The position numbers and the translations under genes are program-made. Below, one piece after another: positions 1 through 30,926 of a DNA stretch of 32,000 nucleotides (positions within the stretch are counted from its first letter, which is position 1; the number at the start of each line of letters is the position of its first letter). The notes below the pieces were generated by a model, which was not told the DNA's origin, made no database searches, and saw only the letters and a program-made list of their open reading frames with translations. Origin of the DNA: Candidatus Methanoperedens sp. (GTDB lineage Archaea > Halobacteriota > Methanosarcinia > Methanosarcinales > Methanoperedenaceae); contig JAPZAR010000027.1 of NCBI GenBank assembly GCA_027460535.1, forward strand, positions 270,001 to 302,000, read 5' to 3'.

Positions 1-21
1 CCGATCTTGGCGTAAAGTTCA

Positions 22-254
22 TATGAAAAACTTTAGGAAAGTTTTATCAAATGAAGGGGATGTTTCACATCCCCTATACGTCATAAAGGGGCGTAACCCT
101 TTATGAAAAACTTTAGGAAAGTTTTATCAAAAACCTTTGAAAAAGGTTTATCAAACGACGGGTATGGCACGCCATACCCGGACACGCCCTCCCGAGGCGT
201 GACTCGGGAAGGGGATGTTTCACATCCCCTATACGTCATAAAGGGGCCTTTATG
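22..254. repeat. Array of concatenated short perfect hairpin modules (mosaic palindromic element)
   Basis: Hairpins at 27-45 and 107-125 (aaaacttt/agg/aaagtttt), 56-74 and 211-229 (ggggatg/tttca/catcccc), 82-105, 131-149 (aaaccttt/gaa/aaaggttt), 159-180 (cgggtatggc/ac/gccatacccg), interleaved 183-201 and 190-209, and 237-254. Exact direct repeats 22-51=102-131 and 53-92=208-247. Confidence 0.85.
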
Positions 255-851
255 ATAGATATATATAATAAATTACTTGACAAACTCGGTCCTAAGAACT
301 GGTGGCCGGCTGAAACTCCTTTTGAAGTGGTCTTAGGCGCCATACTTACACAGCAGACAAAGTGGGAGAACGTCGAGAGGGCGATTAAGAATTTAAAGGA
401 TAGAGGGCTTCTCGAAGCTGAATCCCTCTCCAGGATTGAATCAGGAGAACTGGAAGAACTTGTCAGGTGCACGGGATTTTACAGGCAGAAGGCAAGAAGG
501 TTGAAGGATATTTCAGCATTTTTTTCGGAGAATCCCGATATACTCCGAAAACCGAAAGATGAACTCAGGGATGTTCTCCTTGCATTGAACGGCATTGGAG
601 AAGAGACGGCGGACAGTATCATTTTGTATGCTGCAGACAAGCCGAAATTCGTTATCGATGCATACACAAAGAGGTTATGCAGGTGCGTGGGAGTTGAAGG
701 CGATTATATGAAATTGCAATCCATATTTGAAAATTCCATCCCGCAGGAAGTTCCCCTGTACAAGGAATTCCACGCCCTCATAGTCGAGTACGGAAAGCAG
801 TTCTGCGGGAAAAAACGATGTGATGAGTGCATATTTGATGAACCCGTCTAA
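252..851 (+). CDS. Endonuclease III-related HhH-GPD superfamily protein
   Basis: 199 aa ORF with helix-hairpin-helix/GPD-type motif LNGIGEETADSIILYA and a C-terminal Cys cluster (CGKKRCDEC). Resembles Nth-related proteins. Confidence 0.75.
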   Translation: MIDIYNKLLDKLGPKNWWPAETPFEVVLGAILTQQTKWENVERAIKNLKDRGLLEAESLSRIESGELEELVRCTGFYRQKARRLKDISAFFSENPDILRKPKDELRDVLLALNGIGEETADSIILYAADKPKFVIDAYTKRLCRCVGVEGDYMKLQSIFENSIPQEVPLYKEFHALIVEYGKQFCGKKRCDECIFDEPV

Positions 852-26499: not shown

Positions 26500-26716
26500 G
26501 GAAGGCGCCGTCCATTAAAATAAAAAACCGCAGATAAAGGCGCCCAGAGTCGCGCCTCTGGAGGGCTCAAAGGGGGAGCCGTGAATGAAAATGACAAACC
26601 GCAGATGAAGGCGCCCAGAGTCACGCCTCTGGAGGGCGTGTACACGTATGCCCGCAGGCATACGTGGGCGCGGAGTCGAGAACCCGCAGGGTTTCGGCAT
26701 GATGAACGCAGATTTA
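26500..26716. repeat. Mosaic hairpin-module repeats (one partial copy and one complete 119-bp composite element at 26597-26715)
   Basis: aaccgcagat[a/g]aaggcgcccagagtc[g/a]cgcctctggagggc occurs at 26526-26565 and 26597-26636. Hairpins lie at 26544-26561, 26615-26632, 26643-26666 (10-bp stem) and 26680-26694. Both termini are identical to those of 28509-28668. Confidence 0.85.
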
Positions 26717-26794
26717 TAACACTGTCTCCAGAAATTATTAGCTTTCACCAATTTTTTGAAGTAAATGTTATTATTTCATTAGAAGCTCATGCAG

Positions 26795-26890
26795 CAACCC
26801 GCCCGAAGGGCGGCGCCGTATATGAAATAAAGAACCGCAAGATGAACGCCCCGAGTCGCGCCTCGGTGGTGGGGGCGAAAGCCCTCATCC
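26795..26890. repeat. Further hairpin modules of the same family
   Basis: Hairpins at 26799-26813 (ccgccc/gaa/gggcgg), 26851-26866 (ccgag/tcgcgc/ctcgg) and 26873-26884 (gggc/gaaa/gccc). The unit ggcgccgtatatgaaataaagaaccgcaagatgaacgcc parallels 26504-26543. Confidence 0.7.
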
Positions 26891-26994: not shown

Positions 26995-27349
26995 TTATCC
27001 GATCTCGTGACGTATTCGGACGGCTCCTGGAGTTATCACTGAAAATGATTGTTTAAGTTCTGTTCCATGCTTCTTTATGGCAGAAACCACTATCTCCGCT
27101 TTCCGGGTAGGAGAAAGCCCTGCCAATCGGATTAGCACAACTCCACTGGTTATGCGCCGCTGACGAAAAACAAGCTCACCAAAGTCTTTATCAGCCGTTA
27201 ACAGCAGCACAGTTTTCTCATTAGCCATTTCAAGCACTTCATCGTCAGAAATCCCTGCATTCGTTGGCAACGTACTGCACATTATGTCCCATCAACCGGA
27301 GACGCTCAACGATTTGTCTGTCTACGTTCTCATCGACCAGAAAATTCAC
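26995..27349 (-). pseudogene. DUF5615 (PIN-like) toxin gene, frameshifted
   Basis: The N-terminal piece runs from GTG 27349 (VNFLVDENVDRQIVERLRLMGHNVQYVA...) and stops at 27245. The C-terminal piece (AGISDDEVLEMA...LTADKDFGELVF...) is in another frame (track ORF 26995..27282). The join requires a 1-nt shift near 27255-27270. Confidence 0.65.
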
Positions 27350-27582
27350 GAGACCGCCTCAGCGACCGGGTACACCACATCAGCGCGTAAAGCTTGTGCA
27401 GCAAATGCAAGAGCCGCTCTTATCGCTTCGCGCGTCAGCCGTGGATGAGCCTCCAATATCTGTTCCACCGTTTCGCCTGCGGAAAGCTTTTCCAGGATCA
27501 GCTCCACAGTGATGCGGGTTCCTGCGATGACAGGTTTGCCCATCATTACTTTGGGGTCGGATACAATCAATTTTTTCTGCAT
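27346..27582 (-). CDS. DUF433 antitoxin-type protein
   Basis: IVSDPKVMMGKPVIAGTRITVELILEKLSAGETVEQIL is the DUF433 signature. The ATG at 27582 is preceded by gaggtg. Its stop overlaps the GTG of the DUF5615 gene. Confidence 0.75.
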   Translation of the reverse strand: MQKKLIVSDPKVMMGKPVIAGTRITVELILEKLSAGETVEQILEAHPRLTREAIRAALAFAAQALRADVVYPVAEAVS

Positions 27583-28127
27583 TTTGCACCTCTTTAGCTG
27601 AATGGTTTGAAGCACCGGGTGAGGGATGATATTATCGTGTTAGATATGGTGAATTCACATTTATATTATTATGGTTCTTTTGCAACTCTGCAACGTCACG
27701 TGCAGGGCGACTTTTAGTTTGCGTCAGATTTGAAAGCGGAAGAGAGTACGACAACGATGTCCCCGCTGTTTTTCGCCTACCACCACTTCATGCTCTCCCT
27801 GAACCTCGTCACCCTCTCATCCTTATCCGGTTTCCTGAAAACATAGAGATGCTCATGTCCGATGAGATAGAAGTCATACTTCTTCCCGAACCACTTCTCC
27901 CTCGTGCTCTTCATCTTCCACTGGAGCTTGATGATATCCTCGCGCAATATGAATCCCGCCTCAAGGAAGCTCATGAGCACCCTCGGCGTAATGGGCACGA
28001 AATGCTTGTTGCGCCGCGTATCGCCAATCAGGATGGCGCAGTGCTTGTTGGGCTTCAGGACGCGCATGCACTCACCGGCGACGAGGCGCATCTCCCGATC
28101 GAACTCGGCGATGCTGTGCACGCTCGA

Positions 28128-28204
28128 AAGCCGAAACTTCGGCTTGCGCAGTGTTGGGGTATGCTCTGCATACCCCTCGTTTGATAAACATTTCCTAAAG
28201 GTTT
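28128..28204. repeat. Three-hairpin module lying in frame inside methyltransferase copy A
   Basis: Hairpins at 28128-28145 (aagccgaa/ac/ttcggctt), 28156-28176 (ggggtatgc/tct/gcatacccc) and 28186-28204 (aaacattt/cct/aaaggttt, one mismatch). The module is colinear with 131-180 on the opposite strand. Confidence 0.8.
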
Positions 28205-28247
28205 TTGAGAGGTCGCCCTCGCGGTCATGGGAATAGGGGATGATGCT

Positions 28248-28348
28248 GGAGTACAGAGAAAGTAGCAAAGAATCAACCACAGAGGACACAGAGTTCACAG
28301 AGAGATGTTGTTTTATCTCTGTGTCCTCCGTGCTCTCTGTGGTTTTTT
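28248..28348. repeat. ~100-bp block with long nested inverted repeat, replacing the motif IV region of copy A
   Basis: The arm aaccacagaggacacagag (28275-28293) faces ctctgtgtcctc[cgtgctct]ctgtggtt (28317-28344). An inner stem is cacagagat/atctctgtg. There is no counterpart in copy B, which has 85 nt encoding ...DLIATHPPYA here. Confidence 0.8.
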
Positions 28349-28508
28349 ATCTCATGCGTCTGATACTCTGAATCGAGCGGCATGTAAACAAAATCCAGCA
28401 TGTTGCGCGCCACCATGACAGCATCAGGATTGATATCCACGCCCACGGGGCGCCAGGAGTTTGCATTCCATCAAAGCTTCCTGAAAAAATGCGGTATTTT
28501 GGAAAAAA

Positions 28509-28668
28509 AACCGCAGATGAAGGCGCCCAGAGTCACGAGCCTCCCGAGTCGCGCCTCGGGAGGGCGCGTCCACGTATGCCTTCAGGGCATACGTGTTGTT
28601 TGGGAGTCGAGAACCGTTAGGTTTCGGTCTGAGAACCCGCAGGGTTTCGGCATGATGAACGCAGATTT
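28509..28668. repeat. 160-bp composite hairpin element inside methyltransferase copy A
   Basis: The left 29 nt (28509-28537) are identical to 26597-26625, and the right 38 nt (28631-28668) are identical to 26678-26715. Internal hairpins lie at 28543-28560, 28571-28595, 28612-28625 and 28633-28647. Confidence 0.85.
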
Positions 28669-29010
28669 GCTGTTACATAGGAGGTAATCCCCCCATGCCG
28701 GCCATCTGGTCCAGCACAAGCTCGCCGGGCTGGGTATAGCGCAGGATGAGGTTGCGCGGGATGTAGGGGGACCAGTTGCCCCTGTAGTTCCCAACGTGCG
28801 TCGCCCAGTCGCAGCGGTCGGAGAAGCTCCAGACCTTGGTGGTTTCTGGGGTGAAGGTGGAGGGGGCGAAAAATCTACCCTTATCGGCATCTTCAAGCTT
28901 AGTGAATGGTAATCGTTATGCAGCAGGAAAAAGAATATACACAATACAGGATAAATAAAAATAATATAAGATCTTATAATAACAAATCGCAAAACCATAA
29001 GGAGTTCATA

Positions 29011-29635: not shown

Positions 29636-30065
29636 TTAAAAGTCATTGTATGGATTGAGCAGACACTGGAGTCCGGGGGGTGTTAGGGGAAGGTGAGAAT
29701 AACATCTGAAACGCCTACCACCACTTCATGCTCTCCCTGAACCTCGTCACCCTCTCCCCCGCATCCGGCTTCCTGAACACATAGAGGTGCTCATGCCCTA
29801 TCAGATAGAAGTCATATTTTTTCCCGAACCACTTCTCCCTTGTGCTCTTCATCTTCCACTGCAGCTTGATTATATCCTCGCGCAGGATGAGCCCTGCCTC
29901 AAGAAAGCTCATCAGCACCCGCGGCGTGATGGGCACGAAATGCTTGTTGCGCCGCGTATCGCCTATCAGGATGGCGCAGTGCTTATTGGGCTTGAGCACG
30001 CGCATGCATTCAAGCGCGACTTTCCGCATCTCCTCGGCAAACTCAGCGATGTTGTGCACGCTTGA

Positions 30066-30128
30066 AAGCCGAAACTTCGGCTTGCGCAGTGTTGGGGTAT
30101 GCTTTGCATACCCCTCGTTTGATAAAAA
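30066..30128. repeat. Hairpin module inside methyltransferase copy B (two of the three hairpins of copy A)
   Basis: Hairpins at 30066-30083 (aagccgaa/ac/ttcggctt) and 30094-30114 (ggggtatgc/ttt/gcatacccc). The third hairpin is absent and an A5 run (30124-30128) remains. Confidence 0.8.
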
Positions 30129-30397
30129 GGTCGCCCTCGCGATCATGGGAATAGGGGATGATGCTGGCATAGGGAGGGTGGGTGGCGATGAGGTCAACGG
30201 ACTCGCTCTCTATCAGGTCAAGCGAGCGCGCGTCTCCCGTGTATGTCCTGATCTCAGGTACTTTATACTCGGCATCCAGCGGCTTGTAAACAAAATCCAG
30301 CCTGTTGCGCGCCACCATGACAGCATCCGGGTTGATATCCACACCCACGGGGCGCCAGGAGCTTGCATTCCACCAGAGTTGTGCCTGAGCCCATCAT

Positions 30398-30531
30398 CCC
30401 GAGTCGCGCCTCGGGAGGGCGCAGACACGTCAACCGTTGCGCCAGTTGACGTCGCACACACGTATGGCTCCGCCATACGTGGATATCGCTGCGCGATATG
30501 CCCGCAGGGCATACGTGGATTCCCGCTTACG
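30398..30531. repeat. 134-bp hairpin-module insertion splitting the SAM-binding motif of copy B
   Basis: It lies between codon D (30532-30534) and MMGSGTT (30397 downward). Hairpins are at 30398-30415, 30428-30451, 30459-30481, 30483-30499 and 30497-30513. Confidence 0.85.
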
Positions 30532-30926
30532 GTCAAGCACATGCTCGCCGGGCTGTGTATAGCGCAAAATGAGGTTGCGCGGGATGTATGGCGACCAGTT
30601 GCCCCTGTAATTCCCCACGTGCGTGGCCCAGTCGCCGCGGTCGGGGAAGGACCAGACTGTGGTGGTTTCGGGGGTGAAGGTGGAGGGGGCAAAATTTGAG
30701 ATCGTCCACTTCGGCTGGAGTTTTATTTTTGTTTCCCCGATTTCCACTTCCGTGTGGGATTGGAGGAAATGTTTGTAGTCAGTCCTTGTGATCTCGAACA
30801 AGGATCGATATTGATATGATTACTAATATATAAATTAATATGATCTAATTATGTGAATATAATTAAGTTGGAAGTAAGGTGTAAGTAAGTTATAATTAAA
30901 AAATCCGATTTAAGATCATTAATGCA

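Follow-up and report, generated by a model that had tools for sequence, protein, structure and literature searches.

Hairpin-chain repeats on the start codons of Candidatus Methanoperedens genes as probable mobile elements with a predicted ribosome relay

The window analysed here is a stretch of 32,000 nucleotides (nt) from a Candidatus Methanoperedens genome of 2.9 Mb in 37 contigs (G000:C27:270001-302000; G, C and L numbers are handles for genomes, contigs and loci), and the subject is an array of short perfect hairpins at window positions 23-255, which lies between an oxidoreductase-like gene and an HhH-GPD gene and which recurs as a repeat family within the genus. The gap of about 230 bases from the upstream stop codon to the start codon of the HhH-GPD gene consists of hairpins throughout, here numbered H1 to H3 within each repeat unit. 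The features of the locus are as follows.

1-26, plus strand: 3' end of the upstream F420/NADP oxidoreductase-like gene (putative, label fno), frame ending ...L S D L G V K F I and stop
23-106, plus strand: element copy 1, the basic 84-nt unit, composed of ATGA, H1 (27-45), linker TTTATCAAA, H2 (55-75) and H3 (81-106), with the end CTTTATGA
103-255, plus strand: element copy 2, 153 nt, with the same H1 (107-125), H2 (210-230), a shortened H3 (236-255) and an extra nested 75 nt
132-206, plus strand: nested module chain of 75 nt in copy 2, between linker and H2
236-255, plus strand: terminal hairpin TCATAAAGG-gg-CCTTTATGA, with the start codon of the host gene within the stem
252-851, plus strand: HhH-GPD superfamily DNA glycosylase-like gene (the host gene), Pfam PF00730, E 9e-18

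Anatomy of the hairpin array

Perfect stems are found at 27-34/38-45, 55-63/67-75 (identical to 210-218/222-230), 81-90/97-106, 107-114/118-125, 131-138/142-149, 159-168/171-180 and 236-244/247-255, together with an interleaved pair at 183-188/196-201 and 190-196/203-209. Nine perfect hairpins, two exact direct repeats (22-51 = 102-131 and 53-92 = 208-247), recurring linkers (TTTATCAAA three times and CTTTATGA twice) and an ATG at 252-254 inside the last hairpin had been described in an earlier note on this DNA, and all of them are in the sequence. Folded as a single RNA strand, positions 16-262 reached -104 kcal/mol against -58 ± 4.6 for shuffled sequences (z = -10.0), and as a single DNA strand -66.4 kcal/mol against -25 ± 3.8 (z = -10.9); 0 of 200 shuffles folded as stably as the array. 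When hairpins were strictly required to have a perfect stem of 8 bp or more and a loop of 2-8 nt, with no more than 12 nt between neighbours, the array, with 6 members, is the sole cluster of at least three hairpins in the 2.9 Mb of the genome, and no cluster exceeding two was found under these criteria in the block-shuffled genome.

In copy 1, H1 is AAAACTTT-agg-AAAGTTTT followed by the linker ATCAAA, H2 is AGGGGATGT-ttc-ACATCCCCT followed by TATACG, and H3 is TCATAAAGGG-gcgtaa-CCCTTTATGA. The copy has an open frame of 27 codons, MKNFRKVLSNEGDVSHPLYVIKGRNPL and stop, and differs in 1 base (H1 loop AGG vs AAG) from the unit at the same site in L021/L094. It is one among 38 distinct 84-nt units that were aligned, across which helix 3 is conserved. 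Copy 2 has an open frame of 50 codons, the TGA of which (253-255) overlaps the HhH-GPD ATG, and the two exact direct repeats identify it as a local tandem copy of copy 1. Its nested chain is made up of an AT-rich hairpin (131-149) with TTTATCAAA, a hairpin at 159-180 and the interleaved double hairpin at 183-209. This chain is present neither in copy 1 nor in L021/L094; L015, L036 and L075 have chains at the same junction as the window chain, TTATCAAA / GAAGGGG, and elements that are otherwise near-identical differ by chains of 60-261 nt. The frames of the locus, namely the oxidoreductase, the two small open reading frames (ORFs) sORF1 and sORF2, and the HhH-GPD gene, follow one another through three ATGA (-4) overlaps (24-26/23-25, 104-106/103-105 and 253-255/252-254), in the first of which the upstream stop TGA overlaps the ATG of the element. 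Read by its internal repeats, the array is two tandem units (23-106 and 103-255) of an 84-nt three-hairpin repeat with ATGA junctions in common.

Occupancy, dispersal and siting of the repeat

The orthologous loci of 36 relatives were compared with the window, making 37 loci in all. The HhH-GPD orthologues of these 36 Candidatus Methanoperedens are 69-79% identical, and the same end of the upstream oxidoreductase-like gene is present in the 36 relatives. The site is empty, reading ...gtATGA... with fno and the HhH-GPD gene overlapping, in 13 of the 36, and L009 is a 14th, giving a total of at least 14 of 37. Filled orthologous sites are those of L005, L015, L017, L018, L021 and L036, seven with the window, and have ATGA on both sides; their composition varies from a single basic unit up to composites with other nested chains, and L027 has a different, GC-rich chain at the site. 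Mapped on a tree built from both flanking genes, the filled state takes 3-6 changes, and well-supported sister pairs differ solely by the element (L005 filled and L035 empty; L036 filled and L009 empty). As judged from these comparisons, the history of the site is one of gain or precise loss of the element. The H2 sequence is common to the window, L021, L015 and L036, which favours either an old occupation of the site that was cleanly lost several times or a passage of the locus between lineages.

A dedicated cis-regulatory leader of the HhH-GPD gene, acting as attenuator or sensor RNA, would suit the very stable structure and the hairpin over the start codon. Since at least 14 of the 37 loci are empty and the filled sites differ in composition, however, the array is not a conserved single leader, which the earlier note had also maintained. 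In addition, the same unit stands ahead of dozens of unrelated genes, and a search of Rfam at the gathering threshold returned tRNA only and no match to the element, so that a leader of this kind is hardly credible.

Dispersal of the unit was followed with a 29-nt 5' pattern, at most 3 mismatches being allowed, in 49 genomes of the genus. The pattern was found in 29 of the 49 Methanoperedens genomes, with 0-34 copies each and 4 in the window genome, and the reversed pattern, used as control, gave 0 matches in the same 49. A 25-nt pattern without ATGA was found in 19 of 28 genus genomes, in up to about 50 copies, and in 0 of 273 genomes from 47 other genera of the class. Thirty-four environmental (metagenome) contigs carry the element, all of them with ordinary copies, and viral contigs had no exact match to it. 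On the evidence of these searches the repeat family is confined to Candidatus Methanoperedens, at 0 to about 50 copies per genome. The earlier note depended on its modules recurring elsewhere in the genome, and this was borne out for the 5' module by the 4 copies here and the larger numbers in sister genomes, and for module 183-209 by about 30 copies in the window genome, within GC-rich repeats. Exact-string counts of the modules are mostly 1 in the genome, and the families become visible only by fuzzy or blastn-short searches. Copies in the window genome include one at C11:204196-204307, between fpoB-like and fpoC-like genes and with the same anatomy as the window element, one on C30 nested within a GC-rich repeat, and one within a methyltransferase pseudogene of the window itself. 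[quoted passage not shown]

The position of the unit relative to genes was examined in 30 loci from 30 genomes, picked by the 5' pattern. In these the unit starts with ATG and has an open frame of 27 codons, or of 35-114 codons where chains are nested; about 22 of the 30 end in ...TTTATGA with that ATG opening a long frame, and the first TGA closes a long upstream frame in about 18. In G012 every site matching the 3' hairpin only was taken, which avoids the bias of the 5' pattern, and the terminal NTGA opens a frame of at least 80 codons in 25 of 30 copies, some of which have GTGA or TTGA instead of ATGA, that is, alternative start codons. As a baseline, taken from the window genome and not from G012, 19.8% of 34,866 ATGA sites open such a frame of at least 80 codons and 5.2% are gene-start-like. 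Of the 43 distinct elements compared, 35 are a multiple of 3 in length and 32 run open as far as the terminal TGA, and the other two frames hold 0-8 stops, usually 1-3. Composites of 264-345 nt (L072, L073 and L075) remain open, and in L073 this holds over 114 codons even with a separate inverted-end repeat and its 9-bp duplication nested in the H2 loop. In two decayed copies of other Methanoperedens genomes, L063 and L082, the terminal stop is lost, and the frame now runs on into a long ORF, of at least 182 and at least 509 codons respectively, which it extends at the N-terminus (MKNFRKVLSKEG...). The H3 type with the loop GCGAGGTGTCGC (for example L062 and C11:204196-204307) has GAGGTG 7 bases 5' of the host ATG, and this looks like a Shine-Dalgarno sequence, a putative ribosome-binding site supplied by the element; both window copies are of the other H3 type.

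Conservation of the stems was assessed in the alignment of the 38 units, in which the middle hairpin, H2, occupies columns 33-53. H1 is invariant, H3 is of two types differing by one compensated pair, and H2 is hypervariable and 99.7% paired, with covariation at 8 of its 9 pairs. The changes in H2 are two-sided in 79 cells and one-sided in 0, with 0 G-U intermediates. Selection on an RNA fold would tolerate G-U pairs, and because they are absent the H2 pattern suggests either selection on a DNA hairpin or the writing of one arm from the other. Strictly Watson-Crick stems thus point to a palindrome at the DNA level, and the lack of G-U covariation also counts against the leader.

It was further considered that the two small frames, 27 and 50 codons long, might be paralogous genes for real small proteins, with the hairpins incidental. 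Each of them begins with ATG, stays open and is joined to its neighbours by ATGA overlaps, and numerous copies share the N-terminal MKNFRKVLS and the C-terminal IKGRNPL/IKRGVAL. The peptide varies freely in its middle, however, with pairing in the DNA stem remaining perfect; different copies use two different frames for the same modules (MKNFRKVLS vs MKTLGKFYQ), three element peptides gave no Pfam match, and the copies precede unrelated genes. Functional small proteins were rejected because conservation tracks the stems and not the codons, and genuine genes of this kind are very unlikely here.

A predicted start-codon relay and the search for what moves it

The favoured explanation, to which a probability of about 0.78 is assigned, is that positions 23-255 of the window are selfish repeat DNA, a tandem pair of an 84-nt element that is specific to Methanoperedens, sits on NTGA start codons and would relay ribosomes. 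The ancestral state would have been a 4-base ATGA stop/start overlap between the oxidoreductase gene and the HhH-GPD gene, and an 80-nt unit would have entered this ATGA in such a way that ATGA was left on both sides. The unit would later have doubled locally, and copy 2 would have gained the 75-nt chain of hairpin modules. Each copy has an ATG where the old start codon was, a stop-free frame and the end ...CTTTATGA. Ribosomes finishing the upstream frame would restart on the small frame of the element, melt the hairpins, even the terminal one in which the host ATG is paired, terminate on the TGA and reinitiate on the overlapping host ATG. Because ribosomes would be relayed to the host ATG, the insertion would be cheap for the host and would escape purifying selection, and the hairpins are probably handles for a process that copies or excises the element. 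Termination-reinitiation at -4 overlaps is established in bacteria and archaea. This, together with the precedent of the mycobacterial interspersed repetitive units (MIRU; PMC12548453), argues for a small frame that would pass ribosomes on by termination-reinitiation. The earlier note was right in describing a modular non-autonomous palindromic element that donates or occludes a start codon, and the property that defines the element, its siting on ATGA start codons with duplication of ATGA and a relay ORF, is what it missed. Its statement that the array is not a dedicated leader agrees with the dispersed insertion and needs amending in one respect, as the element would be mobile DNA and at the same time serve, in effect, as a leader that is translated.

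Several observations weigh against this explanation. Neither a mobilising enzyme nor an autonomous parent was found among the Y1 genes, GIY-YIG genes and internal-gene copies examined, and for that reason the word mobile rests on the distribution of the element and on its empty and filled sites. About one copy in six lies off gene starts (L095, L102, L106, L110 and L111). The repeated occupancy of one site in scattered lineages could reflect ancestral presence and repeated precise loss instead of repeated insertion. The openness of the frames is in part not independent, since many copies are built from the same modules, and copies persist where the relay is lost, with premature stops in L054 and L056 and with 8 of 43 lengths not divisible by 3.

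The flanks of the element bear on the way in which it moves. The 4-nt repeats that flank insertions are ATGA, GTGA/GTGA, ACGA/ACGA and TCAA/TCAA, some copies have unequal flanks (TTGA/ATGA and GTGA/ATGA), and an ATG is also found within the terminal palindrome. At least three kinds of insertion are bounded by four-base repeats, namely ATGA, TCAA and ACGA. A DDE-transposon derivative of the classical MITE type, which has terminal inverted repeats and a target-site duplication, would leave direct repeats of this kind on both sides and would be small, multicopy and polymorphic between species, as the element is. Its ends, AAAACTTTAGG... and ...CCCTTTATGA, nevertheless have no inverted relationship to one another, a parent insertion sequence with such ends was not seen, and the true element with terminal inverted repeats and a 9-bp duplication that is nested in L073 looks quite different, which leaves a MITE origin very improbable.

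The earlier note had suggested mobilisation by a Y1 transposase (IS200/IS605 TnpA or of the type of RAYT, the transposase associated with repetitive extragenic palindromic (REP) sequences). In the corresponding explanation the repeat is of the type of REP and of bacterial interspersed mosaic elements (BIMEs), its hairpins are recognised in single-stranded DNA, and the element is pasted 3' of ATGA and excised precisely. The absence of terminal inverted repeats, the hairpins near both ends and the tetranucleotide target agree with this, clean empty sites are consistent with seamless excision, and strictly Watson-Crick stems are expected of DNA hairpins. The window genome has four matches to PF01797 (Y1). 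One at C22:79324-79677 (minus strand) is an intact solitary gene of the IS200 type with a module resembling 183-209 (…GGCGCCAGAGGTCACGCCTCTGGAGGGCGG) about 110 nt upstream of its ATG, no more than a hint of a link, and the copies on C29 and C7 are degenerate. The number of Y1 matches did not track the number of element copies, however, as shown by a Spearman rho of -0.13 over the 49 genomes. Element-rich genomes without any Y1 match are G030 (24 copies; 6 contigs, 99% complete), G043 (27 copies) and G034 (16 copies), and G018 with 26 copies has a weak Y1 fragment only. The 4-nt flank changes together at both ends (GTGA/GTGA, ACGA/ACGA), which is more like a duplication than an end encoded by the element, and no Y1 gene was seen flanked by element ends. 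Y1 was rejected as the mobiliser because such genes, although present in the window genome, have no association with copy number across the 49 genomes, and the whole explanation is considered rather improbable.

A parent of the GIY-YIG type fared no better in the genus genomes, where UvrC-type matches and a few small genes were found, none of them flanked by element ends. No copy with an internal gene was found among the 5'-picked loci, the G012 copies or the environmental contigs. A small GIY-YIG gene (89-residue frame) does occur at L113 (G034:C148), by a tRNA gene and between two 50-nt repeats (CCACCCTTCGCTCTGCGTCCG...GGTGGCAGGCC), which are unrelated to the start-codon element.

Movement without a dedicated transposase was also weighed. 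Hairpins would stall replication, template switching on 4-nt microhomology would copy or lose the element, and selection would keep the translatable copies; as the microhomology guides the switch, donors bounded by ATGA would enter ATGA sites only. This would explain why four kinds of insertion each have a 4-nt direct repeat of their own (ATGA in the start-codon unit, GTGA in L101, TCAA in the methyltransferase chain and ACGA in L102/L106/L111) and why neither of the enzyme families tested, Y1 and GIY-YIG, tracks the element. Perfect palindromes free of G-U are the expected product of strand-switch copying, and precise loss between short repeats flanking palindromes is a known outcome of slippage. 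On the other hand, 4 bases of microhomology are very little for ectopic copying to dozens of sites, some nested insertions have a border repeat of 0-1 nt, and only heavy selection would account for copies being so much commoner at gene starts than at intergenic ATGA. Template switching by itself is likewise an improbable source of the element.

A broader view, tentative and itself judged unlikely, is that of layered hairpin modules at the DNA level that copy into each other and into genes, either without a classical transposase or with an enzyme new to mobile DNA. The start-codon relay would then be one carrier form, and the H2 palindrome would be a trace of strand-switch synthesis or of arm-to-arm correction.

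Known systems and related module chains

The selfish start-codon element favoured here was compared with known repeat families, and the closest working analogue is the MIRU. These are units of 40-100 bp in 40-50 copies, lying between operon genes and inserted at start codons (Supply et al. 1997, per PMC12548453 and PMC3184786); their ORF is coupled at -4 spacing, filled sites have direct repeats of a tetranucleotide, and relatives show the sites empty (PMC12548453, PMC3184786). Similarly, the 84-nt unit occurs in tens of copies between or ahead of co-oriented genes, its internal ORF overlaps the upstream stop and the downstream start at -4 spacing, filled sites have tetranucleotide repeats and relatives have empty ones; tandem copies are found, and the proposed effect of insertion on expression is also of low cost. 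The Methanoperedens unit differs in being built of three perfect hairpins, one of them hypervariable, in taking up nested module chains to a length of 345 nt with the frame kept, and in having modules that populate other repeat families and one coding sequence. The host is an archaeon and the family is found in one genus, and given this host membership in MIRU by sequence is implausible; the likeness is one of working features, and the element is therefore filed as working like MIRU and not as a member.

If the relay works, the element is an archaeal counterpart of the MIRU strategy, mobile DNA hidden where translation passes through, made of a material quite unlike MIRU, namely chains of perfect hairpins. 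The family would also account for many odd spacers and small ORFs in operons of Methanoperedens, at which gene callers otherwise mis-start genes or call spurious proteins. The units of 27 to 114 codons, coupled by -4 overlaps, are natural test pieces for archaeal termination-reinitiation, and presence or absence and tandem copies are possible strain markers for methane-oxidising consortia, comparable to MIRU-VNTR (variable number tandem repeat) typing in mycobacteria. The system is also tractable for a search for the mobiliser, which the Y1 and GIY-YIG enzymes do not fit. To this the window locus adds a clean series of empty sites, an anatomy of tandem and nested copies, covariation free of G-U and negative enzyme associations.

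The earlier note had compared the array with REP/BIME and BOX elements. The comparison holds for architecture, since short palindromic units and recurring linkers are arranged in mosaics, in many copies and as DNA-level palindromes, as in the REP/BIME (REPINs) of enterobacteria and pseudomonads. It does not hold for location and coding, as REP are untranslated and extragenic, typically at 3' ends or between convergent genes, whereas the Methanoperedens copies are co-oriented open frames on 5' start codons. REP are also linked to RAYT, whereas the element does not follow Y1 genes. MIRU is the closer analogue because the element sits on ATGA start codons, duplicates ATGA and keeps a predicted relay ORF. 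For REP, PMC3733652 describes a tag, GTAG or CGTC, that is conserved on one side of the palindrome. CGTC precedes H3 in units of the GGGGCGTAACCC type (window 78-81 and 233-236) and is found neither in the GCGAGGTGTCGC type nor at H1 or H2. Non-autonomous elements derived from IS200/IS605 (PATEs) resemble the element in their subterminal hairpins, lack of inverted ends and insertion 3' of a short fixed target, but a TnpA with matching ends was not found, and Y1 gene numbers do not follow those of the element. Rickettsia palindromic elements (RPEs; PMC10969869) are palindromic, have an open frame and can lie in coding sequence. This likeness is limited to the in-frame chains of 57 and 81 nt in the methyltransferase copies described below, and those genes are otherwise broken; an RPE of about 100-150 bp is fused with the host protein, whereas the Methanoperedens unit is a separate frame ending in TGA.

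Module types of the array recur at the far end of the window in these features.

27777-28900 and 29715-30801, minus strand: paralogous, broken copies of an N6/N4 DNA methyltransferase gene (PF01555), with several hairpin-chain insertions and frameshifts
28125-28205, minus strand: 81-nt in-frame chain in methyltransferase pseudogene copy 1, reading KTFRKCLSNEGYAEHTPTLRKPKFRLS, of the same module types
30062-30118, minus strand: 57-nt chain in methyltransferase pseudogene copy 2, of the same module types, with TCAA...TCAA flanks

Recurrence of the modules 26-30 kb away in opposite orientation, also reported in the earlier note, was found in five matches of 86-96% identity: 127-166 with 28169-28208 (88%), 173-209 with 28542-28578 (89%), 173-208 with 26615-26650 (86%), 185-209 with 30397-30421 (96%) and 147-166 with 30107-30126 (95%). 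Methyltransferase homologues in about 30 other genomes read REGDLS/SVHN without insert, and the in-frame insert, which is bounded by TCAA...TCAA, reads …LS[KTFRKCLS]NEGYAEHTPTLRKPKFRLS….

GC-rich hairpin-chain repeats lie at window positions 26504-26720, 26812-26885, 28487-28690 and 30385-30520 and at about 30 sites genome-wide. They have the frame AAATCTGCGTTCATC ... TTCATCTGCGGTTT, and empty frames (AAACCGCAGATGAACGCAGATAAACGCAGATTT) are found elsewhere in the genome. These repeats and the start-codon element have modules in common, and the nested repeat in the H2 loop of L073 is a copy of the GC-rich type with inverted ends (AAAAGTTTGGTGTT...) and the 9-bp duplication. A different long hairpin (CCACAGAGGACACAGAG ... 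CTCTGTGTCCTCCGTG) lies at 28278-28347 within methyltransferase copy 1, and its words recur, for example at C11:84344. A DUF433/DUF5615 gene pair (PF04255, PF18480) is located at 26995-27615 (minus strand) amid the repeat- and pseudogene-rich region of 26-31 kb.

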